Part shown: positions 1,164 through 43,996 of the stretch, in pieces
Numbering within the stretch: the first letter of the stretch is position 1
How the letters are laid out: each line of letters starts with the position of its first letter
Assembly (NCBI GenBank): GCA_027050205.1
Contig: JALUCS010000060.1
Location: 1-44,522, forward strand
Length of the DNA stretch: 44,522 nt
From: a candidate division WOR-3 bacterium
GTDB lineage: Bacteria > Hydrothermota > Hydrothermia > LBFQ01
Direction of reading: 5' to 3'
Notes under the pieces: generated by a model
Told to the model about the DNA's origin: nothing
Seen by the model: only the letters and a program-made list of their open reading frames with translations
The model's database searches: none
Made by a program: the position numbers and the translations under genes

Positions 1164-1862
1164 TTGACACTCCTGAAGTACCTCCAGACCTTCTACGCCT
1201 TCTCCCGGAGGAAGGCCTTTCGCCTGATCCGGAAGGGAAAGGTAAGGGTAAACGGTGAGGTAATAACCCAACCCTTATACGAGGTGGGGGAAGGGGACGA
1301 GGTGGAGGTGGAGGGGTACGTCCCCGGAGGTTCCCGGAGGATGCTCTACGTGGCCTTCCACAAGCCCCCCGGCTTCGTCGTCTCAAGGGCGGATCCGAGG
1401 TACGCCACCATCTACACCCTCCTACCCCCCGACTTCTACGAGCTTAGGCCGGTGGGTCGCTTGGACGTACCCTCCGAAGGCCTCCTACTGCTGACGAACG
1501 ACGGGGAACTCCTCCACAGGCTGACCCATCCGAAGTACGGGGTACCGCGGGGGTACGTGGTTGAGGTCTCTCCCCCACCGGATAGGGAACTCTTAAAGCG
1601 GATCCTCGCAGGCGTAGAGGACAGGGGGGAACTCTTGAGGGCGCAGGAGGCTAAGATAACCTCCGGGGGTAAGGTCTTCCTCGTACTCAAACAGGGGAAG
1701 TACAGGGAGATAAGGAGGATGATGAGGAGGTTGGGGAGGAGGGTCAAGAGGTTGAAGAGGGTCTTCTACGGTACGGTGGAGCTGGATCTTCCCCCCGGTG
1801 AATGGAGATATTTGAGGGAGGACGAGGTCAGGTCCCTCAAGGAGTTGGTGAGGCTCACTTAG
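1164..1862 (+). CDS. rluB: rRNA pseudouridine synthase, RsuA/RluB family
   Basis: N-terminal S4 domain (SRRKA..LI..GKVRVNG), HKPPG, catalytic GRLD motif, GLLLLTNDG, LTHP; exact subfamily uncertain. Confidence 0.85.
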   Translation: MTLLKYLQTFYAFSRRKAFRLIRKGKVRVNGEVITQPLYEVGEGDEVEVEGYVPGGSRRMLYVAFHKPPGFVVSRADPRYATIYTLLPPDFYELRPVGRLDVPSEGLLLLTNDGELLHRLTHPKYGVPRGYVVEVSPPPDRELLKRILAGVEDRGELLRAQEAKITSGGKVFLVLKQGKYREIRRMMRRLGRRVKRLKRVFYGTVELDLPPGEWRYLREDEVRSLKELVRLT

Positions 1863-3285
1863 AGCCGTTCTTCTTCCTCTTCCGTCGCTTCCTTCGGTTG
1901 GGAGGTTTGCGGTTTTGAACGAGTTCCTTGGTCCTACGCACGATGTCCCTCTCCGCCTCCATCACCTTCTCCCAGAAACCAGTGTGCTTTTCCTCTTTCC
2001 TTTCCTCTCCTTCCACTTCATCCGTATTTTCGTGGAAGATTAGACGGGCGGCGAAGGTCCCGACGGTCATCCACACAACGCTAACCACTATGACACCGAA
2101 GGCGTAGGCCAGAATAACTTGAGCTTTATCGGTCAGTGCCGTCCCTATGCTGAAAGCCACTATGGCCGAGACCAGACCCCTGGGCATCATAAAGAAGAGG
2201 ATGAAGCCATCCTTGAAGTCTATGTCCCTATCCACCTTGTAGAGGACGAAGGTGCTGACCAACCTAACGGCGACGAGGACGAGAAAGATCCCGAAGATAC
2301 CTTGGAGGATGCTTACGTCCAGGAGGTACTCTATCTTCACCGTCATACCGAGTATGAGGAAGAAGAAGGTACTGAAGACGAAGGAGAGCTCCACGCTGGC
2401 CTGCTTGGTGAACTCGTCCAGGGTGAAGTTGAGCATGTCCAACTTTTCGCGGTTTATCCTAAGTATGGGTAGGATCCGCTCAACTACGGTCTGGGCGTTG
2501 GAGATGACCATACCCAAGATTATGGCGGCGAGGGGGCCGCTCCCACCGAGGAACTCCACCAGCCAGTACACTCCGAAGAGCATACCGAGGGTGAGGATGT
2601 AATAGACCTCGTTCTGAATCAGTATCTTTATGGCCTGAAGCCATACGAAACCCACGATTATGCCAATTATGGTGGCATGGACTATGGAGTTGTACAGGTA
2701 CTGTATTACGTTGACACTTCCCCCTTTCATAACGCTTAGGACGACGCTCGCCCCGACCACTATGTATATCTCGGCCAGTACGGCCTCAAACTTGGCTATT
2801 ATGTTGGCCTCCGGGGAGGTCTTGAGCTTGGCGATGGTGGGTAAGACTATGGCCCCGCTCGTCCCCCCCAACATTACCCCTATCAACGCACCGATGTACG
2901 GGTTCCCACCGTAGGCTGTCCAGAGGAGAGTTATGGCCAAGGCGGACAGGAGGAAGACGACGGTTGAGAACACGAAGGCTATGCCCAGCTTCTTGACGAG
3001 GGCGTAGATGTCCAGAGCGAGGCCACCCTCAAAGAGTATTATGGCGAAGGCCATCGTACCGAAGTAGGGGGCTATTACGAGGGCAACGTCCGGTGAGACG
3101 ATGTGGAGGACGTTGGTTATGAGAAACCCCAGGGTCAGTAGGGACAGGGTTGATGGGATGCTGAACTTCCTAAAGACTATATCGGCAAGGAAACCTGCGA
3201 GGATAATACCGGCTATAAAACCGAGAAAGGCGGAAGGGGAGAGACCGGCCGTTCCCCCTCCAGCAGATACGACGAAGTTCAGCAC
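1855..3285 (-). CDS. Cation:proton antiporter (CPA1/NhaP2-like)
   Basis: About 12 hydrophobic helices, ILFEGGL, GTSGAIVLP, MPRGLVSA motifs; basic C-terminal tail. Confidence 0.85.
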   Translation of the reverse strand: MLNFVVSAGGGTAGLSPSAFLGFIAGIILAGFLADIVFRKFSIPSTLSLLTLGFLITNVLHIVSPDVALVIAPYFGTMAFAIILFEGGLALDIYALVKKLGIAFVFSTVVFLLSALAITLLWTAYGGNPYIGALIGVMLGGTSGAIVLPTIAKLKTSPEANIIAKFEAVLAEIYIVVGASVVLSVMKGGSVNVIQYLYNSIVHATIIGIIVGFVWLQAIKILIQNEVYYILTLGMLFGVYWLVEFLGGSGPLAAIILGMVISNAQTVVERILPILRINREKLDMLNFTLDEFTKQASVELSFVFSTFFFLILGMTVKIEYLLDVSILQGIFGIFLVLVAVRLVSTFVLYKVDRDIDFKDGFILFFMMPRGLVSAIVAFSIGTALTDKAQVILAYAFGVIVVSVVWMTVGTFAARLIFHENTDEVEGEERKEEKHTGFWEKVMEAERDIVRRTKELVQNRKPPNRRKRRKRKKNGSK

Positions 3286-5406: not shown

Positions 5407-5412
5407 TATAAT
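5407..5412 (+). promoter_or_regulatory. -10 box TATAAT, 9 nt before ATG 5422; divergent TAGAAT for mat at 5363-5368 (-)
   Basis: Perfect consensus hexamer in a 70-bp divergent intergenic gap. Confidence 0.65.
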
Positions 5413-5421
5413 AAAGGTCCT

Positions 5422-6342
5422 ATGCTCACGTACGTCGTACTGGCCTTCAGCAGCACTGGGGAGGTGGAAGGTGCGGTGAATAGGAAGCCCTTCATCGTAG
5501 ATGAAGGTTTGAACTCCCTTAGCGGCATCAAGGTCCTCTACATCTACAACTCCCGATACGATACCCCCGACCGCCTCCGCTCCCTGGGGGCGACGGTCTA
5601 CGAGGCCAACGTCTCTTCCATCGGTGTGATAAGCGCCGATTCGCTTTGCAGCTACGACTTCGTAGTCGTTGACATTGGAGCCGTTTGGTACATCACTTCC
5701 CTATCCACGGCCATACACGATTACATCGCTATGGGCGGCGGCTACTGGGTAAACCAGCCTAACGGGACGGGGTCCGTCCCCACCCTCCCTCCGGGCTACG
5801 GTGTCCATATCTCCTCCGTATGGTACGGGTGCGGGAACTCCTCGTGTCAGAGTACCACACCGGCCTACAACACCCACCCCATCACGGCGGGGATGCCCTT
5901 GGACTGGACCAGCGGGGACTACGACACCCAAGATTACTACGGCTCCTCCTGGACCGTCCTCATAACCGACGTGGGTCCCACCCTGATGGCCGGGGAGTAC
6001 GGGGACGGTAGGCTCGTATATACGGACCACTGCCTCTCCTCCACCTGTATAGACCCCGGAGACAACCGATACCTGGACAGGATCGGTAGGTACCTCGCCG
6101 CCGGTCCGTGCGGCCCCTTTGCCGAGGTCGGCGACCTTGACGTCAGCGAGGCCACCCCCGAAAGCGGGGGCGTAAGGGTCTTGGGCGATAGGGTCCTCTT
6201 CCCCGAAGCGGTGGGATACGAGGTCTTCTCCAGCGACGGCCGTGTGATAGCGAAGGGTAGGGGCAGGGAGGTGAAGATAGAAGTCAGGGGCGTAGTCTTC
6301 GTAAGGTCCCCCTACGGTACGGTCAGGGTGGTGAGGCGGTAG
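5422..6342 (+). CDS. Secreted protein with GATase1/ThuA-like domain and T9SS-like C-terminal domain
   Basis: Start moved from 5266 (which overlaps mat) to ATG 5422, behind TATAAT 5407-5412; YDFVVV..DYIAMGGG..HPITAG..YGDGRLVY; C-terminus VFSSDGRVI..GVVFVR..VRVVRR. Confidence 0.7.
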   Translation: MLTYVVLAFSSTGEVEGAVNRKPFIVDEGLNSLSGIKVLYIYNSRYDTPDRLRSLGATVYEANVSSIGVISADSLCSYDFVVVDIGAVWYITSLSTAIHDYIAMGGGYWVNQPNGTGSVPTLPPGYGVHISSVWYGCGNSSCQSTTPAYNTHPITAGMPLDWTSGDYDTQDYYGSSWTVLITDVGPTLMAGEYGDGRLVYTDHCLSSTCIDPGDNRYLDRIGRYLAAGPCGPFAEVGDLDVSEATPESGGVRVLGDRVLFPEAVGYEVFSSDGRVIAKGRGREVKIEVRGVVFVRSPYGTVRVVRR

Positions 6343-8697: not shown

Positions 8698-9927
8698 CTA
8701 GAGGTATATCTTCACGTAGTAGTCCTTCTTTGCCTCCTCTACCAGTTTGTTCAACTCCTCCTCTATCTTGCGCTGCAGGAGTATCTGCCTTATCTGCTCC
8801 TTCGTGGGCTTCCGACCCTCCTGAACGTCCAAGACTTTGAAGATGTTTATCATACTGCCGTCCGGTGTGGGTATGGGGCCGACTATGTCCCCCGGTTTGG
8901 CCTCCTTCAGCTTCTCAACTATGTCCGGCGGGAGAGCCTGGGCGCTCACCCATCCGATCTCCCCGCCGTTCTCCTTGGATACGGGGTCGTCGGAGTACCT
9001 CTTGGCTAACTTAGCGAAAGAGTACCCGGCCTTGAGCTTCTTTACGATGCTTTTGGCCTTCCTCATTACCCGCTTGACGTCCGCTTCGGAGGGGGTCACC
9101 TTTACGAGAATGTGGGCGAGGAGGTAGGCGTCCTTTCTCTTCCCCTTTACGTAGAAGATGTGGTACCCCTGCGGTCCCCTCAAGGGTTTGGTGTAGCTCC
9201 CTTCGGGAGTCCTCTCAATCTCCCTAACGAAGTTGGGAGGTAGGGCGTTCTTGGGTACGATGCCGAGGTCTCCTCCTATCTTGGCGCTCTCCCTATCGTC
9301 GGAGTACTTCTGCACCATCTCCTCCCAGTTCGCCCCCCGCTTGAGCTGCTTGTAGATCCTCTTCGCCTTAGCGTAGTACTCCTGCTCTGCGGAGGCGGAG
9401 GGCTTGACCATCAAGGTTATGACGGCCAATTTGAACTCCGGGGGCGTAGAGAGGGAGTCGGCGAGGGTCTTGTATGCCTCTTCAACCTCCTTATCGCTCA
9501 CCTTTATTCGGGGCTTGAGCTTCATCTCAACGTACTTCTGGATGTATAGGGTCTTTCGGATGTCGTCCCTAAGGTAGCGACGGTAGGACTCAAGGGTGAA
9601 TCCGGCCTCTTTCAACTTCTTCTCAAACTCCTCCTCGCTCATATTCCCCCTCATCTGTTGGAGCTGCATGTCTATCGCCCTCTCCACCTCGTCCTCGCTC
9701 ACGTGTATGGTGGTGTCCTCCCTTATCTTCAGGTAGAGTAGCTCCGTATTCACCATCTGCTGGAGGACCTCCCGGCGGAGGGAGGGGAGCTGTTGAGGAG
9801 GTATCCCGTAGGTGGCGGCGTAGAGAAGCGCCCTCTCGTCTACGTCCGAGAGCCATATCGCCCTGTCATCCACCACCGCCGCCACCCTGTCCAAGGTGTC
9901 AAGCTGGGCGGCCAGTAGGATTATCAT
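8698..9927 (-). CDS. surA: SurA-like periplasmic chaperone/parvulin PPIase
   Basis: LDRVAAVVDD..IWLSD SurA N-domain; two parvulin domains (YSDD..SAKIGGDLG; FAKLAKRYSDD..SKENGGEIGW); ATGA overlap with upstream stop. Confidence 0.85.
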   Translation of the reverse strand: MIILLAAQLDTLDRVAAVVDDRAIWLSDVDERALLYAATYGIPPQQLPSLRREVLQQMVNTELLYLKIREDTTIHVSEDEVERAIDMQLQQMRGNMSEEEFEKKLKEAGFTLESYRRYLRDDIRKTLYIQKYVEMKLKPRIKVSDKEVEEAYKTLADSLSTPPEFKLAVITLMVKPSASAEQEYYAKAKRIYKQLKRGANWEEMVQKYSDDRESAKIGGDLGIVPKNALPPNFVREIERTPEGSYTKPLRGPQGYHIFYVKGKRKDAYLLAHILVKVTPSEADVKRVMRKAKSIVKKLKAGYSFAKLAKRYSDDPVSKENGGEIGWVSAQALPPDIVEKLKEAKPGDIVGPIPTPDGSMINIFKVLDVQEGRKPTKEQIRQILLQRKIEEELNKLVEEAKKDYYVKIYL

Positions 9928-10787
9928 TTCCCACCTCCGGCGTACTTCCTTTCAAACACCTTAACGAGCGAGTCCTCAACCTCCTTGCGCCTCTGCTCCA
10001 GAAGGTACTGATAGACCACCCCCTTTACGTCGGGTCCGAGTTTCTTGAGGCTCACCCTCTTTATATCCACGATCTTGGCGAGGGCGTAGGTACCGGGGGC
10101 AACCTGGAAGGGACCTACCACGTCTCCCACCTTGGCCTTCTTGAGGCTCTCGTACTCCTTCTCATCCATAGCAAACCTTCCGAGGCCGAGGTTCTGGTAG
10201 GGGGAGGGCTGGACGTTTATCTTACCGGCTTTAGCAAACTCCTCCAACATCAGGTTGGCGGCGTAGCTGCCGTCCTTCAGGAGCTTGCGGAGGGTATCCG
10301 TGAGGGAGGGGTCCTGATACACCACCATAAGCATGGCTATCTCCTTGGAGAACTCGTCCTTGTGGGCGTTTATGAACTCGTTCACCTTGGAGGTGTCCAG
10401 CTTTATGAGGGGGACGACGTACCTCTGGTAGAAGAGGTCGGCGTAGACACTCTTGTCGGCCCAGTAGGCCATACGGCGGGCCTGGGGGTCGGAGGTTATG
10501 CCCTTCTCCTTGGCGGCGTTGTAGAAGAGGGCGATCTTTCTTAGGGACTGGCGGAGGTCCTGCTGGGGATTCAGTCCGGGTACCTTGGAGGCTGCCTGTA
10601 GGTCCTCCTTGGCTATCACCACGTCCCCTACAACCTCAAGGGTGTCCAGTTTCACCTCCTTGGCGGATGAAGTCTCACCTCCCTCGGCCTTCCCCTTCCC
10701 CGTAAAGTACATGAGGCCAAGCGAACCTAAGAATATTCCGGTGGCCAGGGAGACGATGGCCACCACCACAACCGTCAGTCTGTTCAT
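9924..10787 (-). CDS. Membrane-anchored SurA/PrsA/PpiC-like protein with degenerate PPIase domain
   Basis: N-terminal TM helix; AKEKGI; LKKAKVGDVVGPFQV..YALAKIVD; coupled to surA. Confidence 0.65.
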   Translation of the reverse strand: MNRLTVVVVAIVSLATGIFLGSLGLMYFTGKGKAEGGETSSAKEVKLDTLEVVGDVVIAKEDLQAASKVPGLNPQQDLRQSLRKIALFYNAAKEKGITSDPQARRMAYWADKSVYADLFYQRYVVPLIKLDTSKVNEFINAHKDEFSKEIAMLMVVYQDPSLTDTLRKLLKDGSYAANLMLEEFAKAGKINVQPSPYQNLGLGRFAMDEKEYESLKKAKVGDVVGPFQVAPGTYALAKIVDIKRVSLKKLGPDVKGVVYQYLLEQRRKEVEDSLVKVFERKYAGGGK

Positions 10788-10813
10788 GGGGAGGGAGTTT
10801 AAGGGGGAAAACC

Positions 10814-11320
10814 CTACGGTACGCTCAAACGGAAGAGGCTGTCGGGTAGGGGTACGTTTACCCTGTGGTTCTTCAAGGTTATCTTAACGTAATTCTCCGC
10901 CTGAAAGGCCTCTATCCTCTCCGGTAGCAGGTCCTTCCGTAGGTACACGAGGAGGGAGTCGTACCCGACCTTCTCGCTCGTTATCTTGAGGACCGTCCTG
11001 TCCCCTTCCCTCCGCTCTTCAACGTTCAGGGCGGAGTAGTCGCCCATGAGGAGGGATTTGAGGTCGTAGGGTACGGGCTGGGAGTATATCTCTCCTTGGT
11101 ACTTCACCCAGGAGCTGTCTCCCCGTGCTACGATTATGTACTCCTCCGGGTCGGTCAGTTCCCACCGGAAGAGGTCGGGCTTCTTCAGGTAGACCTTCCC
11201 CCTATAGACGGCGACGTTTCCGAACTTCACCTCCTGTACGACGTCCGCCTCAAACGTCCTGACGGTGTCGTAGATGCGCTTTATGTCGTCTACGACGTTG
11301 AGGGTGAAGAACCACAGCAT
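10814..11320 (-). CDS. lolA: Outer-membrane lipoprotein carrier LolA family
   Basis: FEADVVQ..GKVYLKKPDLFRWE..P..IIVARG..W; C-terminal VNVPLPDSLF. Confidence 0.8.
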   Translation of the reverse strand: MLWFFTLNVVDDIKRIYDTVRTFEADVVQEVKFGNVAVYRGKVYLKKPDLFRWELTDPEEYIIVARGDSSWVKYQGEIYSQPVPYDLKSLLMGDYSALNVEERREGDRTVLKITSEKVGYDSLLVYLRKDLLPERIEAFQAENYVKITLKNHRVNVPLPDSLFRLSVP

Positions 11321-11323
11321 ACC

Positions 11324-12781
11324 TCACCTCACCACTACCCTGTAGGTCCTATCTCCCACCTTGAGGAAGTATATGCCCGTACCGAGGCGCACGTTCAGGC
11401 TTAGGCCCCGATCTACAAGGCGGCCGTCCGCGGAGTAGAGGGAGAGGTATTGCCCTTCGGAGCGGGCTACGAGTTCCTTCCCCCTCACGGTGAAGGCTAC
11501 CCCCTCCATTCTGGTGGTCTTGAGGGTGGGGGAGGGTGTGGCGAGGAGGGCGAGGTATGCGTTAACGAGGCCGTATCCGTAGAAGTAATCCTTACCGTAT
11601 TCCCCCATATCTATGGCCGTAGCGTCCAGAATCGCCCTTACGGTGTCAGCAGACAGGTTGGGGTTCTTTGAAAAGACGAGGGCGGCCACACCGGAGACGT
11701 GGGGCGTCGCCATAGATGTGCCGTCCGCGTAGGCGTAGGCGTTGGTAAAGGGTACGGTGGAGGCTATCAGGTTGCCCGGAGCCACCAGCTCCAGTTCCGG
11801 GCCGTAGTTGCTGAAGTACGCCCTCTGGCCGAGGGTGTCTATGGCCCCTACAGCCATCACCTCCGGATAGGCGGCGGGGTAGAGGACCCCGTTGAGGCCA
11901 TCGTTCCCGGAGGCGGCGACGAAGAGGGGAGGGTTGTCCGTGCTGTCCGTCGCGTAGATGACGGCGTCGTGGATCTCGGAGGCCGGGGAGGAGGAGCCGA
12001 GGCTCATGTTTATGACCTTCGCCCCTTGGGAGACGCACCACCTTATACAGGAGGCTATGTCCTCGCTCGTCCCGGAGCCTCCGGCCATCGCCCTACAGGA
12101 GAGTATCCCCACCTGGGCCACCCCGACGACGCCCCTACCGTTGTCCATAACGGCGGCTATGGTGCCGGAGACGTGGGTTCCGTGCATCTCCGAGGCGTCT
12201 GCGGGGTAGGGGTCGGAGTCCAACTCAACGAAGTCGTACCCCCCGACGTAGTTCCCGCTTAGGTCTTCGTGGTTGTAATCTACCCCCTCATCTACGACGC
12301 ACACCTTAACGGCGGAGTTCCCACGGGTTATGTCCCAGGCCCTATCAGCGTAGATAGCCCACATCCCCCACAGGTAGGTACCCATTCCGGGGTCGTTCGG
12401 CCAGTACTGGGTGCGGTATATCACCATCGGCTCGGCGAAGAGGACACCGGGGTGGGAGTTGAGGGCGTCTAATACGGCCTTGGCCCCTTCTACGCTCCGC
12501 TTCCCCTCTGGGAGCCTTACGATGTAGGAGGGGGTACCCTTGGCCTTACGGTAATCCAGACCCGACAGGACCTCCTCCGGCGAGTACCCGGCCTTCAACC
12601 TAACTACCAACCTCTTACCGTCCCAAGACTTCCAGTAGGAGGGGTCGTCCCTCCGGACGAGGTACCAGGCGTAGGGCCTCTCACCTACCCTATCCTCCCT
12701 CAAGGCAGTTAGGACCTCCCCTACGCTTCTCAAGTTAGCAACGGCCACGTCCGGCCTGAAGAAGGCCAGTTGCAGTATCAT
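11324..12781 (-). CDS. Subtilisin-family (S8) serine protease with propeptide and T9SS-like CTD
   Basis: VVDEG, HGTHVSG, ASGN, GTSMATPH catalytic motifs; C-terminus LYSADGRLV..GIYFLKV..RVVVR. Confidence 0.93.
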   Translation of the reverse strand: MILQLAFFRPDVAVANLRSVGEVLTALREDRVGERPYAWYLVRRDDPSYWKSWDGKRLVVRLKAGYSPEEVLSGLDYRKAKGTPSYIVRLPEGKRSVEGAKAVLDALNSHPGVLFAEPMVIYRTQYWPNDPGMGTYLWGMWAIYADRAWDITRGNSAVKVCVVDEGVDYNHEDLSGNYVGGYDFVELDSDPYPADASEMHGTHVSGTIAAVMDNGRGVVGVAQVGILSCRAMAGGSGTSEDIASCIRWCVSQGAKVINMSLGSSSPASEIHDAVIYATDSTDNPPLFVAASGNDGLNGVLYPAAYPEVMAVGAIDTLGQRAYFSNYGPELELVAPGNLIASTVPFTNAYAYADGTSMATPHVSGVAALVFSKNPNLSADTVRAILDATAIDMGEYGKDYFYGYGLVNAYLALLATPSPTLKTTRMEGVAFTVRGKELVARSEGQYLSLYSADGRLVDRGLSLNVRLGTGIYFLKVGDRTYRVVVR

Positions 12782-13212
12782 CTTACCCCCCTTAGGTAAG
12801 CCCTTATCCAGAACCTCTTGGTCGTTATGGTAGAGGAGTTACCGAGGACGACGTAGTAAGTTGAGGAGTCAAGGGCGACGGTGTAGGAGACCCTTGGGAC
12901 GCTCTCCCTGTAGCCGTTGAGGACGGCGGAGGAGTCGTCGGCCAGCCACCTCGCGTAGTTTATGCTGTCCGACCAGAAGGCGAAGCTTATGTCTCCGTCC
13001 CCGTCCCTGGCGCGGGCCTCAAAGAAGAGGGTATCGCCAGTCCTCGCGGAGAACTTGAGGCGGAAGTGGTACCCCGGTCCCACGTCGTAGTACCCGTGGA
13101 AGAGGTCCACGTTCGTTATCCTCCCGCTCCCACCTCTCTCCTCGTTTTCCTCTGTCTCACATCCCGCGAGTAGCAGAAAGAGGAACGAGACACCTAAAAG
13201 GAACCTCCTCAT
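12778..13212 (-). CDS. Hypothetical lipoprotein (beta-sandwich-like)
   Basis: MRR + hydrophobic core + lipobox LAGC; TAAAAT at 13222-13227 (-), 9 nt upstream. Confidence 0.75.
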   Translation of the reverse strand: MRRFLLGVSFLFLLLAGCETEENEERGGSGRITNVDLFHGYYDVGPGYHFRLKFSARTGDTLFFEARARDGDGDISFAFWSDSINYARWLADDSSAVLNGYRESVPRVSYTVALDSSTYYVVLGNSSTITTKRFWIRAYLRGVR

Positions 13213-13269: not shown

Positions 13270-14037
13270 TCACTTCAACAACCTCATTATCATAACGATG
13301 ACACTTATTATAGTCACGGTTTGGGAGACCACAAATATAAACATCCACTTGATCATATCCGACTTTATCTTTCCCATCTGACCGTATATATCGGCGCGGA
13401 GCTTCTCTATCCTCTCTATCATCTCGGAGCGGAGTTTGCCTATCTCGTCGTGCATCTCGGAACGTAGGCCTTCAATCTGACTCGTCATCTCCGAGCGGAG
13501 TTTGCCTATCTCGTCGTGCATCTCGGAGCGTAGGCCTTCAATCTGACTCGTCATCTCCGAGCGGAGTTTGCCTATCTCGTCGTGCATCTCGGAGCGTAGG
13601 CCTTCAATCTGACTCGTCATCTCCGAGCGGAGTTTGCCTATCTCGTCGTGCATCTCGGAACGTAGACCTTCAATCTTCTCATCCACCTCGGCGCTGTGCT
13701 GGGCAAAGAGCTTGTACATCTCGGAGCGGAGGTCCTCAATCTGTCTCGTTATCTCGGCCCGCAACTTCCCTATCTCGTTCCAGACCTTGGCTATCTCCCG
13801 CTGAACCTCGGCCCGGAGTTTTCCTATCTCGTTCCAGACCTTCCCTATCTCCCGGTTCATCTCGGCTCGGAGCAGGCCGATCTCCTCGGCTAACCTCCGG
13901 GCGAACCTCTCCTCAAGAAGGCGGAAGAGGTAGTCCCTCGTCCTCTCCCTCTCCTCCTCAAGCACCTCAAACAGGGCATCTACCCCATCTTCGCCGAGCT
14001 TTTCCTTTAAAGTGTTCAAAGCAGTGATTTTACTCAT
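13270..14037 (-). CDS. Coiled-coil repeat protein with C-terminal membrane anchor (DUF1640/CCDC90-like)
   Basis: LKEKLGEDG..AL head, repetitive coiled-coil stalk, C-terminal KSDMIKWMFIF + TM helix; TATAAT at 14048-14053 (-). Confidence 0.8.
   Translation of the reverse strand: MSKITALNTLKEKLGEDGVDALFEVLEEERERTRDYLFRLLEERFARRLAEEIGLLRAEMNREIGKVWNEIGKLRAEVQREIAKVWNEIGKLRAEITRQIEDLRSEMYKLFAQHSAEVDEKIEGLRSEMHDEIGKLRSEMTSQIEGLRSEMHDEIGKLRSEMTSQIEGLRSEMHDEIGKLRSEMTSQIEGLRSEMHDEIGKLRSEMIERIEKLRADIYGQMGKIKSDMIKWMFIFVVSQTVTIISVIVMIMRLLK
13420..13676. repeat. Intragenic 66-bp tandem repeat, about 3.9 near-identical copies (22-aa unit)
   Basis: Unit catctcNgagcggagtttgcctatctcgtcgtgcatctcggaRcgtaggccttcaatctgactcgt starting at 13420, 13486, 13552 and 13618. 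Confidence 0.95.
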
Positions 14038-14232: not shown

Positions 14233-14262
14233 TTGTCGCAGATTAGGCAACGGCCTTATAAT
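14233..14262 (+). promoter_or_regulatory. sigma70-type promoter TTGTCG-N18-TATAAT, 9 nt before ATG 14272
   Basis: -35 at 14233-14238, -10 at 14257-14262. Confidence 0.6.
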
Positions 14263-14271
14263 AGTAGTGCT

Positions 14272-14562
14272 ATGATGCTCTGGATCTTGGGCCAGGTGGC
14301 CACACCTTACGGGCAGACGCCGGCCGACGTTAGTCGGCTCGTGGTGGTGTTCAAGGACGAGAGGATAAGACGTTGCGGTTGTATAGACCGCATAGAGAGG
14401 CGGCTCCTAACGGATCTAAGGGGTACGGTTAGGCGGGTGATATACGGTGCCGAGAAGAACGTCCTCTACCTCCTCCTGAAGCCCGACAGCCCCATAGATA
14501 CCGCTGCTGTCGGTCGCATACTGAGGGAAGAGGGGGTGAGGAGCTATGAGATACGCCGTTAG
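14272..14562 (+). CDS. Small protein resembling an HMA (heavy-metal-associated) fold with a CxC motif
   Basis: RCGCIDRIERRL..L.GTVRRV pattern parallels HMA CxxC..IE..L..GV..V; start placed after the -10 box. Confidence 0.55.
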   Translation: MMLWILGQVATPYGQTPADVSRLVVVFKDERIRRCGCIDRIERRLLTDLRGTVRRVIYGAEKNVLYLLLKPDSPIDTAAVGRILREEGVRSYEIRR

Positions 14563-20491: not shown

Positions 20492-21166
20492 GTGAAGAAG
20501 AGCCTCCTCTTCGCCTTAGGGGTGGGTGTCGTAGCTTTGACCCAAGCCTACGCCCTCTTCGTGGTCCCCCCCGTCAAGTGGCCCGGCCCCAACGGTGAGG
20601 TGTTGGGTACGGTGCAGAAGATCTTCTACCTCCACGTACCCCTCGCGTGGGTGGGCTTCCTGATGGCCTCAATATCCGCCCTCGCCGGCTTCCTGTACCT
20701 CACCCGTCGGAGTGCGAAGTGGGACAGGCTTTCGGCCTCGGCTATGGAGGTGGGGGTGGTCTTCCTCACCGTCGCCATAGCGACCGGTTCCCTCTGGGCC
20801 AGGCCGGCCTGGGGTACCTTCTGGACGTGGGATCCGAGGCTCGTCAGCATGGCCGTCCTCTGGGTCCTCGCCGTTGGCTACCTGTTCCTGCGGAACCTCG
20901 TGGATGAGCCGGAGTTGAGGGCGAGGGTCTCCGCCCTCCTGTCCCTGATAATCTTCGTCAACATCCCCGTCGTCTTCCTCTCCATAAAGCTCTTCCGGAC
21001 CCTCCATCCCGCCGTGGTCAAAGGCCTCTCCAAGGGGGACACCTACGGCATGGATACCCCCATCCTCGTCGGCCTCCTCCTCAACCTCACAGCCATGACC
21101 GTCCTCGGTTTCGCCCTCCTCTACCTGCGGTACTCAAAGGAAAACGGGGAGGAAGCATGTACCTGA
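20492..21166 (+). CDS. ccmC: Cytochrome c biogenesis heme-handling protein CcmC
   Basis: IFYLHVPLAW, WWD motif WARPAWGTFWTWDPRL, RTLHP. Confidence 0.9.
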   Translation: MKKSLLFALGVGVVALTQAYALFVVPPVKWPGPNGEVLGTVQKIFYLHVPLAWVGFLMASISALAGFLYLTRRSAKWDRLSASAMEVGVVFLTVAIATGSLWARPAWGTFWTWDPRLVSMAVLWVLAVGYLFLRNLVDEPELRARVSALLSLIIFVNIPVVFLSIKLFRTLHPAVVKGLSKGDTYGMDTPILVGLLLNLTAMTVLGFALLYLRYSKENGEEACT

Positions 21167-21969
21167 CCCTACTCTCCTTCCTGACGGAGGACTACGGCCT
21201 CGTGGCCTACTTCCCCTCCTACGGCGACAGCGTACGGTTCTCCGCCAACTACTACACGGGGAGCCGATATCCCCTCTTCGTAGGGTGTTTCAGGGGTTTC
21301 TGTCTTTATGCCGGCACCTACGCCGGCTTTTACAGGGACTCTTCCTTTTACCTTCGGGACCACAGGAGGATAATAGACACCATAGACCTCCGCCGGAGCG
21401 CCGTACAGGAGTGGGCGGTGTTGAGTCGCTTCTTCTACTCCGGCAACCTCCTGATGGGTTTTGAGGCCGGCCTTATGAGGGAGACCTATTCCTCCGTCCT
21501 TCGCTCTTACAACGACGTCTTCCCGGACAACCACTTGAGCCTCGGAAACGAGAGGAGGGGGATGCTCTTCGGTGGGGTGATGGGATACGTGAGGGGGAAC
21601 GCCTCCGGCTACCTCCTTTTCCGTTACAGGAACATCACGAAGGACTCCTCCATCTCCTCCGGGGATACCACCGGCTGGGTCATAACCGTCCCCCAACCTC
21701 CGGAGGGGAACTTGGAGCTACTCCTGCACCTGCGGTACAGGTGGGTGTCCCTCAACGTCAGTAAGAGGGGGAAGATGGCCGGATACGTCCGCACCGAAGG
21801 GGCCGTAAAGGGCTTTCCATTTGCCTTCAGTCTGGGGTACGCCCCCGGTACGGGTCCTGTACTCTCCGGAGCCTTTGGTCTCACCTTCAGGGAAGTCCTG
21901 TTGATGGTGGGTGGGGCTTACGCTGGGGGACCGACCCTTGGGGTAGGGGTTAGGTATCCGTATCCCTAA
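21157..21969 (+). CDS. Hypothetical protein, possibly an outer-membrane beta-barrel
   Basis: Typical codon usage; alternating Gly/aromatic strands ending LGVGVRY; overlaps the end of ccmC. Confidence 0.55.
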   Translation: MYLTLLSFLTEDYGLVAYFPSYGDSVRFSANYYTGSRYPLFVGCFRGFCLYAGTYAGFYRDSSFYLRDHRRIIDTIDLRRSAVQEWAVLSRFFYSGNLLMGFEAGLMRETYSSVLRSYNDVFPDNHLSLGNERRGMLFGGVMGYVRGNASGYLLFRYRNITKDSSISSGDTTGWVITVPQPPEGNLELLLHLRYRWVSLNVSKRGKMAGYVRTEGAVKGFPFAFSLGYAPGTGPVLSGAFGLTFREVLLMVGGAYAGGPTLGVGVRYPYP

Positions 21970-28550: not shown

Positions 28551-29822
28551 CTAATATGGAAGCATTGCACCGTATCGGATGTACTGCCCAGTGATAGGGT
28601 CAAAGACGATAGCCCATTCGTGGAGCATCACGGGAGGGGCGTTCTTGGAAGGACTCAAGGGGGCCGGATAGTATCCGGGATAACTGACCTTCCCCGTCGT
28701 GGGGTCCAATACGACGCACACACTTCCCGCTACGTTGAGGTACCTGACGTTCAGGGGCGATGACTGTTTAGGAGGGGCATACGAGTACCAGAGTTCAAGC
28801 GACACCTCCACGATGGCGTCGGACAGGTTGGGGTTGGCGATGGCTATTACGCTGGAGGGTAAAACGTTGAGGCATCTCCTACCGTTTATTTCGGATACGC
28901 CGTAATCGTAGCAGCCGGTCCATATGCTGAAGTAGTCCGAATTCAAAAATCTATACAGATTTTCGCGATCTCCGGGTATTACGAAGATGTTTATAGGGAG
29001 GTTGGACTTTACGGAGTAGATAACATCCATACGACTGGAAACTTTAGGTAAATCCCCTACGTTCAACGTAGGGATCACCTTACTACCGCCCCTGACGAGG
29101 AACTTCATCCTCCGTTTATGTACGATATATATCCTGTTATCCTTGACGATCACCGTATCTCCCAGACTTCGGGCGGTTTCTTTGGCCCTCATCTCGGCAA
29201 AGGAGAATCTCGCGTACGCCGTCAATCTTTTAAGGTTTAGGTCGCAGGCTAAGGCAAACATATGGCCGGGAATCAGCACCAGATAGGTCCTTATCCCAAT
29301 GTTCTCAAGGAGGGACACCAGGAGGATGCTCAAATCCTCACAGTCTCCCCCTCCCATCCTCATCGTCGTAAATGGAGACTGGATAAAGTCGTCCGGTCTT
29401 GGATCCGAGCGGTAGCGGTAGTTTTCAACGATGTACCTGTAAATCGCATTCACCATACACTCCCTGTCGCCGTCCGGACAGTCCCTCACTATCCTTCCCG
29501 CCTTTAGCCTTAAATATCGGTTCGGGACGCATACCTTTGCCAGATACGGACGTATCCAGCGGTACGTTGTATCACCTCTGTGCATCTCGTCAATCTTTGA
29601 TAAGTTTGGATTTGAGCAGTTGTACCTCCTTAAGGTTCTTTTTTGAGTTCTCGGATACCTTTGATCACCTTTGGCGGGACTTTTAGATATCCGTCCCCTA
29701 TATCTGCGATTAATGGCTATGTTAAGGGTTTTATTGATCTCCTCCAAAGAATCGCAGTTCAGATTCAGGGCCTGGAACATCACGAGGACAATTACGGGGA
29801 GGACACCCCTTCCCCTTATCAT
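28551..29822 (-). CDS. Transglutaminase-like cysteine protease domain protein
   Basis: YRSDPR..FIQSP..T...GGGDCED.SILL.SLL..IGI..GH; distal VLDPT; atypical AT-richer codon usage. Confidence 0.8.
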   Translation of the reverse strand: MIRGRGVLPVIVLVMFQALNLNCDSLEEINKTLNIAINRRYRGRISKSPAKGDQRYPRTQKRTLRRYNCSNPNLSKIDEMHRGDTTYRWIRPYLAKVCVPNRYLRLKAGRIVRDCPDGDRECMVNAIYRYIVENYRYRSDPRPDDFIQSPFTTMRMGGGDCEDLSILLVSLLENIGIRTYLVLIPGHMFALACDLNLKRLTAYARFSFAEMRAKETARSLGDTVIVKDNRIYIVHKRRMKFLVRGGSKVIPTLNVGDLPKVSSRMDVIYSVKSNLPINIFVIPGDRENLYRFLNSDYFSIWTGCYDYGVSEINGRRCLNVLPSSVIAIANPNLSDAIVEVSLELWYSYAPPKQSSPLNVRYLNVAGSVCVVLDPTTGKVSYPGYYPAPLSPSKNAPPVMLHEWAIVFDPITGQYIRYGAMLPY

Positions 29823-30816: not shown

Positions 30817-30854
30817 CGGTGGGAGGTTTATCCGAGGTCTAAAGATGTATCGGT

Positions 30855-30925
30855 CGGCATTACGCTGATGGGGTGGCACTCTGCCCTTCGCCTGAACTTA
30901 GCCGTTAACGGATTTTGAACAGCAT
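30855..30925 (+). repeat. Dispersed degenerate non-coding element, copy A
   Basis: Shares CGGCATTACGCT with 40056-40067 and two blocks (22/31 and 16/17 identity) with the minus strand of 37542-37665. Confidence 0.6.
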
Positions 30926-31306
30926 CAGGAAGGACCTGTCCTTTCGTCAAATAGAGGTATGGGTGGGCGTTCGGATACGCCCTCAAAACTAAAAATCTGT
31001 CTTAAGGAAACTTGATCTACGCTTTAAAAAATCTTCAGTTTCGCTTCAGAATTCTTTCAAGCTCCATTTCCGGTAGAGAACCGTCCGAAACTTGAAGTCT
31101 AAACTCGGAAAATTGGAAGTTTCATTTCGGAAAATCGCGAGTTTGGAAGAAATTCTTTCAATACACATTATAAAATTTTATGATGCATTTTTCACAAAGT
31201 AGTGAATAGCTGTAGTCTGATTTCGTTCCAACGCCTCCCCGTAGGCCATGCCCTACCCGACGAGCGGTAAGACCACTCACCAGTCCGCCATCGCCCAAAG
31301 GGGAAC

Positions 31307-31335
31307 TTGACAAATCGCCCTTTTCCTGCCATTAT
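31307..31335 (+). promoter_or_regulatory. hsp20 promoter TTGACA-N17-CATTAT (TGn extended -10); SD AAGGAGGTG before ATG 31385
   Basis: Perfect -35 hexamer, 17-nt spacer; gives a leadered transcript. Confidence 0.65.
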
Positions 31336-31384
31336 TCCACGGACGCAAGTTAACATAAGTTAAAACCAAAAAGGAGGTGAAACC

Positions 31385-31877: not shown

Positions 31878-32381
31878 TTGATGCGAAGGTTAAGGGAGAT
31901 ACTAAGACGCGATAACCTCATCTTCTCGCTTCTGCTCCTTCTGTACGCCGTCCTCTTGGGGATGTTGGACCTCATAACGAAGGCGTGGGCCTACTCCTCC
32001 CTTGAGATGCACAGCCCCGTAAAGGTGTGGGGGGATTTCCTGCGTTTCACTTTGGTGATCAACTACAATACCGCCTTCGGCCTGTCCTTCGGTGAGAACT
32101 TCCCCTACGCCCTGATGGCCTCGCTTCTCGCCCTCTTCTTGCTCGCCGTGATGGTGTGGGAGAGGAGGAAGCTCTACAAGTTCCTGTACGCCACCATCCT
32201 CGGAGGGGCCATAGGCAACATAATAGACAGGGTACTGCGTGGGGGGGTGGTGGACTTCGTGGATGTGGGCATAGGAAACTTCCGCTGGTACACCTTCAAC
32301 CTCGCCGACGTGTGGGTGTCTATAGGACTGGCGGGCCTCATTCTGCTGATGCTCTTCGGGGAGAGGAACCCTCGGTCGTAG
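31878..32381 (+). CDS. lspA: Lipoprotein signal peptidase II
   Basis: DLITK, N..AFG, GGAIGNIIDR, VVDF, FNLAD; start TTG 31878 or ATG 31881, behind TAGAAT 31866-31871. Confidence 0.95.
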   Translation: MMRRLREILRRDNLIFSLLLLLYAVLLGMLDLITKAWAYSSLEMHSPVKVWGDFLRFTLVINYNTAFGLSFGENFPYALMASLLALFLLAVMVWERRKLYKFLYATILGGAIGNIIDRVLRGGVVDFVDVGIGNFRWYTFNLADVWVSIGLAGLILLMLFGERNPRS

Positions 32382-34236: not shown

Positions 34237-34967
34237 ACTTCAAAGGTTTTTCGGAGATAGCGAAGATTTACGACCTCCTGTTTGAGGACATAGACTACGG
34301 GGAGTGGGCGGTGTATATCTCCAAGATACTGAACTTCGCCCCTATACCCGTCAGGAGGATCCTGGAAGTGGGTTGCGGCACGGGGAACCTAACGAGGGAG
34401 TTGGTAAGGTTGGGGTACGAGGTCGTAGGGGTGGACGTCTCCGAGGGTATGTTGGAGGTGGCGAGGAGGAAGGTGCCGGGGGTGAGGTTCGTAAGGGCGG
34501 ACGTGAGGGAGCTGGCCCTCGGTGAGGAGTACGATGCCGTCGTCAGCACCTTTGACAGTTTAAACAACCTCCTGACGGAGGAGGACCTCGCCCTCGCCTT
34601 CAAGCGGATCAGGGAGCATCTGAAACCCCGCGGCATATTCGTCGGCGACCTAAACACCCCCTACGCTATGATGACGGACTGGAACGACACCCTCTTTGTG
34701 AAGGAGGTGGGGGACGGTATCCTGACCATATGGCGAGGGGAGTACGTAGGGGACAGTGTATCGGAGTTGAACCTGACGGTCTTCCTGCCCGTAGGTGAGG
34801 GCCTTTACAGGAGGATGGACGAGACCTTCAGGGAGAAGGGCTACTCCCCCAACGTTGTGATGCGGCTCCTGAAGGGCGCCGGCTTCATAAGGGTGTGGGC
34901 CTTTGACGACACCTCCTTTGAGAAACCCACCCGCAGATCCAAACGGGTGACCTACGCTGCTATCTGA
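34233..34967 (+). CDS. Class I SAM-dependent methyltransferase
   Basis: LEVGCGTG, GVDVS..ML, FDSLN; ATGA overlap with purE. Confidence 0.9.
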   Translation: MNFKGFSEIAKIYDLLFEDIDYGEWAVYISKILNFAPIPVRRILEVGCGTGNLTRELVRLGYEVVGVDVSEGMLEVARRKVPGVRFVRADVRELALGEEYDAVVSTFDSLNNLLTEEDLALAFKRIREHLKPRGIFVGDLNTPYAMMTDWNDTLFVKEVGDGILTIWRGEYVGDSVSELNLTVFLPVGEGLYRRMDETFREKGYSPNVVMRLLKGAGFIRVWAFDDTSFEKPTRRSKRVTYAAI

Positions 34968-36525
34968 TCACCACCTTCGCCCGCCCACCTCCGTAGGTCA
35001 GGAAATAGATACCGGGCTGAAGGGATACCTTACCCGGACCGTACCGCCCCACCAACCTACCGTCCGCACCCCATACGGCTACCTTCCCCTTGAGGACGAG
35101 GCTTCGCCCGACCACTTCCCATACCTTTTCGGCATGCTTAGGGTGGGCCTCTCCCGTACTTAGGTCCCCCAACTCCGAGAGGATACCGCAGTTGCTCAAA
35201 GGTCCGTCAAGGACGAGCAGGCTATCCACGTAGGACACGCAACGGTACATCACTATCTCCGAGCATCCGTCCCCGTCCACATCCCCGACGGCCACGCTGG
35301 GGTCCGTATAGCACCCGTGTATCCGGCTGTACTCCACGTTCCCGTTCCGGGTGTCAAATATGCGGAGGCGACCGGGTGGTGAGAGGTCCCCGTCGCAGGT
35401 CTTTATCACCTCCCACCTGCCGTCGTGGTCGTAATCTACGGCCGCAAGGCTCGCGTCCCAGCAGGAGTTCCCCTCCGGTCCGAAGTCCCACGATACGGAG
35501 GCGGAAGTACCCGTCTGGTCTATCCTATAGACGTGCTGGTCCCATCCGAGGAATATCTCCGGCCTACCGCTCGCATCCACGTCCAAGGTGGCGAAGTACT
35601 GGAAGCCTATGGCCCCGATGTTCCTACCCAAGTCAAGGGACCAGAGGAGGCTACCGTTGTGATTTACGGCCTTTAGGGTCTGGTCGTGGGGTCCGTAGGC
35701 GTTATCTGTGAATACTACGTCGTATCTCCCGTCGCCGTTGAGGTCCTTCAGGGAAGGGGTCTGGATGTCGGTCGTCGTGCTTATCGGATATATCCACTCA
35801 AGGGCGCCCGTGCGACCGTTGTAGGCCCTTAGACCGTTCCTTCGGGTCTTAACCACTATCTCCTGCGTCCCGTCTCCATCTATATCCCACACCGCCGGCG
35901 TAGAGTAGGCCGGTTGCCCGTCGTAGCTCGTTACGTACTCGGAGTTGTCCATCACCCTGCTCCATATGACCTGTCCGTTTGACCCCCTTAGGACGTAGAG
36001 GACGGGGATACGAGAGGAGTTATGCTCTATGTAGATGACCTCCGGTCCGGAGAAGGTGGGGACCACGTCTGCCACGACCGGGGAGGATCCGAGGTTTGAG
36101 ACGTACCGGTACCACAGCCTCCGCCCGTCCCGACCCCTAAGGGCCACGAGCTGGGTAGAAGTCCTGATAACTACGTCGTCAAGGCCGTCCCCGTTGAGAT
36201 CCCCACAGGCCGGCGTAGCATACTCCGCTCCGCTTCCGTACGTCTTACTCCACAGCAGCGCACCGTTCGTACCGGCGAAGGCGAAAACCTTGTTGCTGTA
36301 GTAGTTCGTCGTCTTCACAACGACCTCACCGCCGGCGTAGGAGTTGGTAAGGTTGCATATCACAGGAGAGCCGTGGATGTTCAAGGAGTACCGACTTCCA
36401 AGGTACTTCTTCCACTTTACGAACACGTACGTCATACCACCCCTAAGGGGCTGTACCCCTATGTGCCTGGGGTCCTTACCGTACATCTTCCAGTATCCTA
36501 CTCCACCGACGAGGAGGATTACCAT
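34960..36525 (-). CDS. Secreted FG-GAP/PQQ-like beta-propeller protein with T9SS-like CTD
   Basis: Repeated TPA..D(L/I)(N/D)GDG..(E/D)(I/V)V Ca-binding motifs and G...W repeats; C-terminus WGADGRLV..PGIYFL..KVVIR; start moved to ATG 36525, behind TACAAT 36535-36540. Confidence 0.85.
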   Translation of the reverse strand: MVILLVGGVGYWKMYGKDPRHIGVQPLRGGMTYVFVKWKKYLGSRYSLNIHGSPVICNLTNSYAGGEVVVKTTNYYSNKVFAFAGTNGALLWSKTYGSGAEYATPACGDLNGDGLDDVVIRTSTQLVALRGRDGRRLWYRYVSNLGSSPVVADVVPTFSGPEVIYIEHNSSRIPVLYVLRGSNGQVIWSRVMDNSEYVTSYDGQPAYSTPAVWDIDGDGTQEIVVKTRRNGLRAYNGRTGALEWIYPISTTTDIQTPSLKDLNGDGRYDVVFTDNAYGPHDQTLKAVNHNGSLLWSLDLGRNIGAIGFQYFATLDVDASGRPEIFLGWDQHVYRIDQTGTSASVSWDFGPEGNSCWDASLAAVDYDHDGRWEVIKTCDGDLSPPGRLRIFDTRNGNVEYSRIHGCYTDPSVAVGDVDGDGCSEIVMYRCVSYVDSLLVLDGPLSNCGILSELGDLSTGEAHPKHAEKVWEVVGRSLVLKGKVAVWGADGRLVGRYGPGKVSLQPGIYFLTYGGGRAKVVIR

Positions 36526-36617
36526 AGAGATTGAATTGTAAGGGAGGATGACAACCAAGAAACCGTACGTCCAAACTGAAATTCTCAAATTTGTAGTAAA
36601 ATTTCAAATTTTTTAAC

Positions 36618-36633
36618 ATTTTGACGTCAAAAT
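36618..36633. promoter_or_regulatory. Perfect 16-bp palindrome ATTTTGACGTCAAAAT, candidate operator
   Basis: Exact inverted repeat about 90 bp upstream of the FG-GAP gene start. Confidence 0.45.
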
Positions 36634-37541: not shown

Positions 37542-37665
37542 ATGCTCTTCAAAATCCGCAATTGAAGGGCGACTTACGATTTTTTGAAGTCCAACCCACA
37601 GTTTTTAAAGAGGTGTTGTGCAACCTCTGGCGATGGATGGAGCGTCATCCTATCGGCGTAATACC
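37542..37665 (-). repeat. Dispersed degenerate non-coding element, copy C
   Basis: Minus strand aligns to 30856-30899 and 30909-30925, with an extra hairpin-containing insert. Confidence 0.55.
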
Positions 37666-43213: not shown

Positions 43214-43927
43214 CTATTGCCCGTCCGGTACCAGATAAGGCACCCCATCCGGAGCCAACCTGACCCTTCCAACGACCACCACCACCTCCCGCCCTGGGCG
43301 ATATACGGGATGGGCCTCCGGGGAGAGGAACCTGCCGGCTACGATCCTGCCAGTCCCATAGATACAGCCCGTGGGGTCGTAGAGGGTCGTGGCTGATCTG
43401 CTCAAGTCGCTGGGCAGGGGAGTCCCCCTCCCAACCGGGCAACCCCACCCACCGGGGGAGACGACCAATAGGACCCTCTTTCCGGCGTAGGCCTTAGGTG
43501 AGTCAAGGATGTCCCCGACCCTGACCCTTACGATAGGCTCCCCAGAATACTCCAGTCGCACGCTCAAAGTCTCACCTACCAGTCTGGCCATCCCCTCCGG
43601 GACGACCTTGAGCCTTACGGTGGTATCCGGGGGCCGCCCTTCCAACTCCCTCTGGCTCTTCCCGCGGGAGACGTACCATCTCCCACCCTCGTACCCGACC
43701 ACAACTTCGCCGTCCCCCACGAGGGCGGAGGTCCCCCCTACGGACACCCTCGCCTTCCCCTTCAGGTTGAAGAGGATATACAGAGACTTGAGGGTATCCC
43801 CCTCCGAGAGGGGGAGGTGGAGGGTGTATGTGGCCCCATCGTCAGGTAAGACTATCTCCCTGGCCATGTACTCCCCGGCAGGAGAGCCGTCGTAGGCTCC
43901 GAGGGGGATCGGAAACATAAGGAGCAT
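43214..43927 (-). CDS. Hypothetical protein with possible C-terminal OB-fold-like domain
   Basis: Start MLLMFP at 43927, behind TAGAAT 43935-43940 (the longer ORF overlaps the mutase antisense); V.DIL..P..Y.GK.V..GW..LYD.TGCIY pattern. Confidence 0.6.
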   Translation of the reverse strand: MLLMFPIPLGAYDGSPAGEYMAREIVLPDDGATYTLHLPLSEGDTLKSLYILFNLKGKARVSVGGTSALVGDGEVVVGYEGGRWYVSRGKSQRELEGRPPDTTVRLKVVPEGMARLVGETLSVRLEYSGEPIVRVRVGDILDSPKAYAGKRVLLVVSPGGWGCPVGRGTPLPSDLSRSATTLYDPTGCIYGTGRIVAGRFLSPEAHPVYRPGREVVVVVGRVRLAPDGVPYLVPDGQ

Positions 43928-43996
43928 AACCCCGATTCTACGGTGGGTTCGCCACCGTCCCACCGCCAACTTTAAAATCCCAAACCTACGGGGATT

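Follow-up and report, generated by a model that had tools for sequence, protein, structure and literature searches.

Can a methionine followed by about six uncharged hydrophobic residues carry a protein out of the bacterial cytoplasm? The question arises from a contig of a candidate division WOR-3 bacterium of the class Hydrothermia (JALUCS010000060.1 of assembly GCA_027050205.1; 44,522 nucleotides, analysed at full length and called the window here). The genome, of which the window is one contig, comprises 2.05 Mb in 135 contigs at 57% G+C and is 93.5% complete; the labelled sequencing runs that contain the window are hydrothermal vent metagenomes. On the minus strand, the gene for the periplasmic chaperone SurA (8698..9927; PF09312 from residue 12, PF00639) starts with MIILLAA followed by Gln (9907..9927), that for LolA (10814..11320; PF03548) with MLWFFTL (11300-11320), and that for an S8 subtilase with a C-terminal domain (CTD) resembling that of type IX secretion system (T9SS) cargo (11324..12781) with MILQLAF (12761-12781). 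A sequence-only reading of the window had listed nine such N-termini and proposed that they act as a minimal export signal. All nine are present in the sequence at the positions it had assigned to them, and three starts are as constrained as it had described: those of SurA (9927, minus strand) and the subtilase (12781, minus strand) overlap an upstream stop in ATGA, a TGA in the case of SurA, and an in-frame TGA lies three bases ahead of the LolA ATG (11320, minus strand). The proposal itself is upheld across the genome, with export and cleavage predicted, and alongside normal lipoprotein and Sec signals. Our sequence analysis confirms that stub leaders, that is Met plus about six uncharged hydrophobic residues, are real and start most of the predicted periplasmic, outer-membrane and surface proteins of this organism.

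This conclusion is based on 1917 genes called with our own gene caller, 1760 of which had a complete 5' end and encoded at least 80 amino acids. A leader was counted as a stub if residues 2-7 included no Asp, Glu, Lys or Arg and at least four hydrophobic residues, with no long hydrophobic segment. The rule selected 282 of the 1760 genes, an overcount because it also catches some cytoplasmic proteins such as a methyltransferase and a cysteinyl-tRNA synthetase-like protein. As a marker of export that is independent of the N-terminus, we used a T9SS-like CTD profile with 123 hits. It was grown from five window proteins, which therefore match by construction; two of the five (43173 and 14546) also pass the TIGR04183 cut-off, and the CTD of the subtilase is called by our profile only, which was seeded from the subtilase itself. 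Of 119 CTD proteins, 86 carried a stub, 16 a canonical signal and 17 neither, the last group consisting of about eight near-miss stubs and others that resemble mis-starts or fragments. Stubs occurred in only 3 of 106 proteins with cytoplasmic motifs, one of which is a TonB-dependent receptor whose P-loop is fortuitous, and stub-like hexamers followed 62 of 2654 (2.3%) internal start codons of the CTD proteins. When the first start codon of each open reading frame was taken and no start model was applied, 63 of the 119 CTD proteins were still stub-led.

Proteins with barrel-like C-termini pointed in the same direction (stub in 10 of 18). A Pfam scan of 68 of the 196 non-CTD stub proteins assigned a family to 39 at E<=1e-5, and these were mostly envelope proteins: SprA, BamA and two further Omp85 members, LptD, TonB-dependent receptors, two TolC proteins, Skp, FadL, OmpA, two amidases, DsbA-like/thioredoxin-fold proteins, PCuAC, YceI and YajC. 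PntB and a Na/Pi transporter were also among them, together with a methyltransferase, a glycosyltransferase family 4 (GT4) enzyme and an ankyrin protein as probable or possible false positives. The CTD proteins fit T9SS cargo: SprA scored above the TIGR04189 cut-off, and a PorV-like match lay below its cut-off. The 123 CTD-bearing proteins, which occur together with SprA and the PorV-like barrel, amount to about 6% of the genes. Residues 9-28 were slightly more acidic in stub proteins than in unsignalled ones (-0.29 versus +0.21, p=0.0015). At least six near-identical proteins of 210 residues, some of them encoded in tandem, start with MLLY/C(F/L)LS-Q (contigs C109, C114, C126 and C101); the three members scanned had no Pfam match. 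BamA, LptD and SprA are all encoded in the genome, as is a V/A-type ATPase; V-type ATPases are reported to be common in WOR-3, of which the EM3 lineage is now a class (PMC12285271), and EM3 was placed near Thermotogae in 16S trees (PMC4791363).

Every start in this gene set was picked by one start model, and the upstream frame is open in a few cases (36525 and 43927). Both points would suit the view that the stubs are artefacts, with real starts lying upstream or with a frameshift, readthrough or assembly error masking a normal signal. We regard this as highly improbable. An in-frame stop lies no more than eight codons upstream in 130 of the 282 stub genes (TAA/TAG/TGA, 66/48/16), the hydrophobic run could be extended upstream in only 4, and signal-like upstream frames did not exceed the control, even when stops were ignored. 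TAnAAT boxes occur 11-18 nucleotides ahead of 174 stub starts. Among orthologues, the length of the leader is kept and its sequence drifts: in each of the 12 SurA genes of the family, a stop lies 1-8 codons ahead of the start and Gln follows 6-7 uncharged residues, with 39% identity in the leader versus 79% over the next 20 residues and not one charged leader residue. LolA relatives called by outside gene finders started with a short leader in 9 of 9 cases, none with a charged residue. In three runs from two other studies, contigs read through the starts of LolA and the subtilase without gaps. Neither upstream or non-AUG initiation nor frameshifted signals or recoded stops found support, and assembly error was not seen, as the independent contigs agree.

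Most of the remaining starts had been described as sitting directly behind a -10 box. This holds for 5422, 14272, 36525, 43173 and 43927 (TAnAAT 13-15 nucleotides upstream), but not for 21157, which is led by a Shine-Dalgarno (SD) motif and overlaps ccmC. Across 1130 constrained starts, a TAnnnT box peaks 12-15 nucleotides before the start codon. Leaderless translation appears to be dominant, with a -10 box 12-16 nucleotides upstream of about 46% of the genes and an SD motif at about a third. Because the genome is largely leaderless, many genes have little or no room upstream. In the BamA genes of three genomes (G013, G014 and G020), no ATG precedes the short hydrophobic run, where TTG or a rarer start is possible.

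What, then, does the stub correspond to? The first polar or charged residue of stub proteins mostly falls at positions 8-11. Gln occupies position 8 in 12% of them (background 1.5%) and lies within positions 6-10 in 63 of the 282. The residue before this Gln is Ala or Ser in 43 of the 63 (background 11.6%; p about 1e-22), with Leu at -3 in 40, in line with a small residue at -1 and an aliphatic one at -3. Canonical signals of the same genome have 17-23 residues and end in P-x-L-x-G/A or L-x-A. Short and long paralogues are mostly offset by 11-12 residues, as in the pairs MLVAIIS-IPAFARMY versus MKRLFVGFGLLLAVPLWG-IPTYARRY and MVLFLIS-Q versus MRRSLTYLTLLLAGGLYA-Q, which places the stub over the final seven residues of its longer counterpart. 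It resembles a signal-peptidase c-region on its own, turned hydrophobic. A positively charged n-region is lacking, as residues 2-7 hold no Lys or Arg by definition of the class, and there is no separate hydrophobic region (h-region) of membrane length, the stub being 11-12 residues shorter than its canonical paralogues. Canonical Sec signals cleaved by signal peptidase I (SPase I) measure about 18-30 residues in total.

Ultra-short lipoprotein signals were rejected as a general explanation, since Cys occurs at positions 8-11 in 11 of the 282 stub proteins, with 8.3 expected. A ChaN-family protein (contig C83; L132:13134-13913) starts with MLLTLVAS-C and may have an ultra-short lipoprotein signal; its orthologue in a family that has the signal recognition particle (SRP) shows a normal lipoprotein-like signal before Cys. 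A basic n-region was counted in 78 of 79 lipoproteins, a circular number because the rule largely demanded a basic residue. The suggestion that formyl-Met replaces the n-region is not supported: 40 of 41 genomes have a deformylase, the factor that shields the formyl group in E. coli, SRP (PMC5454389), is absent, and a formyl group removes a positive charge and does not supply one. Loss of the deformylase or the formyltransferase was likewise dismissed, as both are present.

We also followed the leaders across related genomes, whose families are labelled f1, f2 and so on. Families f1, which includes the studied genome, and f2 form one order, and f5 is a sister family. The survey covered orthologues and CTD proteins in stretches of 40-100 kb taken from 17 genome sets, with 1-15 samples per genome; it left out 10 genes of the studied genome that were judged to be cytoplasmic proteins resembling stub-led ones, together with orthologues whose alignment began beyond residue 30. 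The order yielded 21 short leaders, 5 canonical ones and 3 that were neither; the corresponding numbers were 6, 2 and 3 for f5, 7, 13 and 5 for the rest of the class, and 6, 12 and 3 for SRP-positive families. Stubs dominate the two families of the order and the sister family, where canonical signals coexist with them. These three families form one clade in a midpoint-rooted SecY tree (99/99), and the BamA leader is short in each. SurA leaders measure 7 residues in f1, 9 in f5 and 11 in f3; those of f4 and f6-f10 reach 15-20 and contain basic residues. Most of the leaders end at the same Gln.

YajC indicates where such a leader may have come from. In most families, SRP-positive ones included, it opens with a stub whose final residue, Ala, Gly or Ser, is followed by Gln; in f4, f7 and f8 it has a full basic signal ending in A-Q. 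Outside the phylum, a short uncharged hydrophobic start was found in 4 of 4 YajC proteins (Bacteroidota, Gemmatimonadales and two proteobacterial). As basic residues follow its single transmembrane segment (TM), YajC is predicted by the positive-inside rule to have its N-terminus outside (N-out). On this N-out protein, stub and full signal are, to judge by the sequences, interchangeable, and the stub is not unique to the order. Its phylum-wide occurrence on YajC, together with the full signal in three families, suggests that a pre-existing N-tail signal was generalised to exported proteins.

The genome encodes SecY, SecG, SecDF, YajC, YidC, a single LepB, LspA, TatC, deformylase and formyltransferase. 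Motif searches had missed SecA, LepB, TatC, SecDF and the ATPase, and profile searches recovered all of them except SecA in the studied genome; SecA was found in 39 of 41 genomes, and 10 of 11 family relatives have it. With YidC present and TatC in 4 of 5 genomes, export by YidC alone, or as passengers of Tat substrates, was also considered. Such a route seems very unlikely: the stubs have no basic residue and hence no twin-arginine, the cargo includes a barrel of 1851 residues, and YidC-only substrates have short translocated regions (PMC9360617).

The sequence-only reading had suspected an adapted SecA, SecY or SPase I. For SecY, polar substitutions in TM5 and TM10 support this, but neither LepB nor SecA shows a convincing order-specific change; LepB is single-copy, and no family-specific change was seen in three stretches around its catalytic boxes. 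In SecY, numbered on the E. coli chain, S405R occurs in 26 of 26 class genomes, in 0 of 15 other genomes of the phylum and in 1 of 150 representatives drawn from 50% clusters. Position I195 holds Ser or Thr in 26 of 26 class genomes and Cys in 5 of 8 SRP-positive genomes, and this position is Ile, Val or Met in 148 of 148 diverse representatives with a residue there. A197 is Asp or Glu in the class, and the RPG motif reads RAG in f1 and one f3 genome. From helix periodicity and the spacing to I408 and to I191, which we take to be a pore-ring residue, we infer that positions 405 and 195 line the periplasmic funnel. R405 is not a general mark of SRP loss, since Ser or Ala stands at this position in seven genomes that lack SRP and lie outside the class. 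Further class-specific SecY columns are, in our own numbering, R404, E204 and D317 (studied SecY at L113:11596-12933), and changes specific to f1, RPG to RAG among them, fall in the cytoplasmic loops that bind SecA. The C-terminal zinc-binding motif of SecA is missing in complete SecA proteins of f1, f2, f4, f5, f6, f8 and f9 and kept in f3, f10 and three SRP-positive families.

Mutations of the prlA type, which allow defective signals through, are located in TM7, TM10 and the plug of SecY, and an engineered I284C/T404C pair draws TM7 toward TM10 in an activated state (PMC4826270). Position 405 adjoins T404 of this pair. The known prlA sites themselves are not substituted: I278 and I408 are invariant, S282 is Ser or Thr, and F286 is Phe in the studied genome.

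Ffh and FtsY (PF00448) were found in none of 41 class genomes, with 14 of 14 controls positive. Across the phylum, 133 of 201 genomes had a match, and the 68 without all belong to 16 families that lack any. SRP RNA (RF01854; the small SRP RNA model was not among the searches) was detected in 0 of 3 class genomes and in 2 of 2 SRP-positive ones. Three SRP-less families outside the class group with SRP-positive ones in the SecY tree; SRP was thus probably lost more than once in the phylum. The SRP-less genomes outside the class are G057, G059, G069, G079, G087, G091 and G095. SRP loss was rejected as the cause of the stub, since there are SRP-less families with mostly canonical signals and SRP-positive families with some short leaders.

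With SRP missing class-wide, something must deliver hydrophobic chains, and seven residues fall below textbook signal anatomy (PMC9360617). A factor specific to the lineage could complete the signal, either a chaperone that substitutes for SRP or an enzyme that acylates the N-terminal Met to give a lipopeptide-like signal. We rate this as improbable, as stubs are found on YajC and BamA in SRP-positive families too and no candidate gene was identified, the gene content of the relatives not having been compared as a whole.

We instead favour, as the probable explanation, that the stub is a minimal Sec signal, which would be driven head-first into SecY by SecA and then cleaved by LepB after residue 7. 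The route, the orientation, the role of R405/S195 and the cleavage are inferred from the anatomy of the stub, its association with export, the cleavage-site register and the machinery present. SecA would draw most of its targeting information from the unfolded mature chain together with the stub. The N-terminus would lead, as in N-out membrane proteins, because seven residues that lack a basic n-region cannot bridge the bilayer in the usual hairpin. Arg405 and Ser/Thr195 may loosen the closed SecY channel in a prlA-like manner, being permissive but not sufficient. The stub would then slip into the outer leaflet and occupy the LepB site as a c-region on its own (L-x-A/S/G), which would free the mature protein. 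Such a route may have arisen from a stub that N-out proteins like YajC already carried.

Besides the cytoplasmic proteins caught by the stub rule, several observations weigh against this explanation. SecA was not found in the studied assembly, which is 93.5% complete, and an adaptation of SecA had to be discarded, as its large insertion in the preprotein-binding domain (about 100 residues) is phylum-wide, SRP-positive families included, and only one order-specific column was found. The SecY pore ring (I191/I278/I408) is unchanged. R405 and S/T195 occur throughout the class, also in families whose signals are mostly canonical (13 canonical, 7 short, 5 neither); as they are not confined to the short-leader families, they do not alone explain the stub. 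Short BamA leaders also occur in the SRP-positive families f24 (MIFFLLS), f31 (MIIFILFA) and f21, of which f24 and f31 are without R405, so neither SRP loss nor R405 is needed for every short leader. Finally, 4 of 12 SurA orthologues have Val or Met directly ahead of the conserved Gln and so miss the small -1 residue, and the window LolA, with Leu at position 7, is a poor fit to the small-residue rule of SPase I. Together with a LepB that shows no matching change, these last residues would be accounted for if the stub directed Sec export yet often remained uncleaved, too short to act as an anchor and staying on the mature protein. The strong enrichment of Ala/Ser-Gln and Leu(-3) at one position, and the register with the cleavage sites of canonical paralogues and YajC, make this unlikely.

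Going beyond a minimal Sec signal, the stub could tentatively be seen as a distinct class of export signal, a bare seven-residue peptidase site without a membrane-spanning part that takes entire soluble and outer-membrane proteins head-first through a naturally unlocked SecY in SRP-free cells and places most envelope biogenesis of the order outside the hairpin model. We consider this possible, but would not put it forward as the likelier outcome.

The other features of the window illustrate how stubs and normal signals occur side by side. Upstream of SurA, a peptidyl-prolyl isomerase (PPIase)-like protein (9924..10787, minus strand) has a long, basic-led N-terminal hydrophobic segment. A lipoprotein (12778..13212, minus strand) bears a normal basic signal with an LAGC lipobox, and a CTD protein (TIGR04183; 14546..16156, plus strand) a canonical 19-residue signal ending in LNA-Q. 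The lipoprotein signal peptidase LspA (PF01252) is encoded at 31881..32381 (plus strand), and the lipoprotein route, with its normal signals, is predicted to be intact. Further stub-led CTD proteins are MLTYVVLA (5407..6342, plus strand; start 5422, -10 box 5407-5412), MIWVVAS (TIGR04183; 42187..43187, minus strand; start 43173, TATAAT box, in-frame stop three codons upstream) and the FG-GAP protein MVILLVG (34960..36540, minus strand; start 36525, TACAAT box, candidate longer TTG start at 36588). Three weaker examples, to which no protein family could be assigned, are only putatively exported: the 96-amino-acid protein MMLWILG-Q (14257..14562, plus strand; start 14272, -10 box 14257-14262), the SD-led MYLTLLS that overlaps ccmC (21157..21969, plus strand) and MLLMF (43214..43940, minus strand; start 43927, TAGAAT box), which is the weakest example. 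A putative polytopic antiporter-like protein, MLNFVVSA-GGG (1855..3285, minus strand), may carry a stub before an N-out tail. The window also contains a coiled-coil protein (13270-14037, minus strand) whose 18-residue repeats stand in tandem and whose C-terminus forms a hydrophobic anchor, an atypical, poorly scoring and possibly acquired gene with a transglutaminase-like Cys motif (28551-29822, minus strand), and two long intergenic stretches without a called gene (36600-37990 and 30820-31380) that are more AT-rich, in a genome with 57% G+C.

The n-h-c signal and hairpin insertion count as general rules of Sec export and leave no room for stub export. BamA, LptD, SurA, LolA and Skp headed by seven uncharged residues would provide a natural test of what targeting, the opening of the channel and cleavage require of a signal. 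Within one genome, paralogues that differ in having a long or a short signal serve as matched controls, SurA forms a graded series across families (7, 9, 11 and 15-20 residues), and two SecY positions can be named as candidates. Signal predictors would probably overlook as many as about one in seven of the genes here and so skew what is concluded about the secretome and ecology of the phylum. Strain sy37 is a cultured member of the class (PMC12285271; class from PMC12542636). No published description of such leaders was found in a search that covered mainly open articles, supplements excluded, and the main texts of the WOR-3 papers examined, again without supplements, make no mention of signal peptides, secretion or SRP.

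Five known systems come close. Bacteria without SRP are already known (PMC4758666): Ffh and FtsY are missing in Leptospira, Dehalococcoides and SAR86 as they are here, and Leptospira lacks the SRP RNA too. The sections of that article on which we draw describe no shortened signals, whereas here the loss is class-wide and recurs in the phylum. The Bacteroidota Q-rule, to which two of the N-termini had been likened, shares the enrichment of Gln directly after the predicted cut, but its signals are of normal length, with Gln at +1 in >48% of the SPase I substrates (PMC5837995). Here the leaders are short, Gln lies at positions 6-10 in only 22%, and no PF05096 glutaminyl cyclase was found in the 93.5% complete genome, an animal-type cyclase not being among the searches; the likeness is not supported. 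Suppressors such as prlA4 (F286Y/I408N; PMC4826270) resemble the Hydrothermia SecY in their polar TM10 substitutions near the TM7-TM10 contact; the changes described here are natural, fixed across the class and at other positions (405, 195, 197), with a putative effect.

The Sec/SPase I signal (PMC9360617) is likewise N-terminal, hydrophobic and fast-drifting; its small -1 and aliphatic -3 residues recur in most of the stub proteins with Gln at positions 6-10, and it is interchangeable with the stub on paralogues and YajC in organisms where SecY, SecA (in relatives) and LepB are present. The stub differs in having no basic n-region, about seven residues and a merged h- and c-region, and it cannot span the bilayer as a helix. 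As two defining features of the n-h-c architecture (PMC9360617) fail, we regard it as a variant of this signal and not as a member. N-out membrane proteins, finally, share the start itself, as YajC shows the same stub-plus-Gln across the phylum; in the order studied here, by contrast, the stub heads wholly soluble proteins and outer-membrane proteins of up to 1851 residues.

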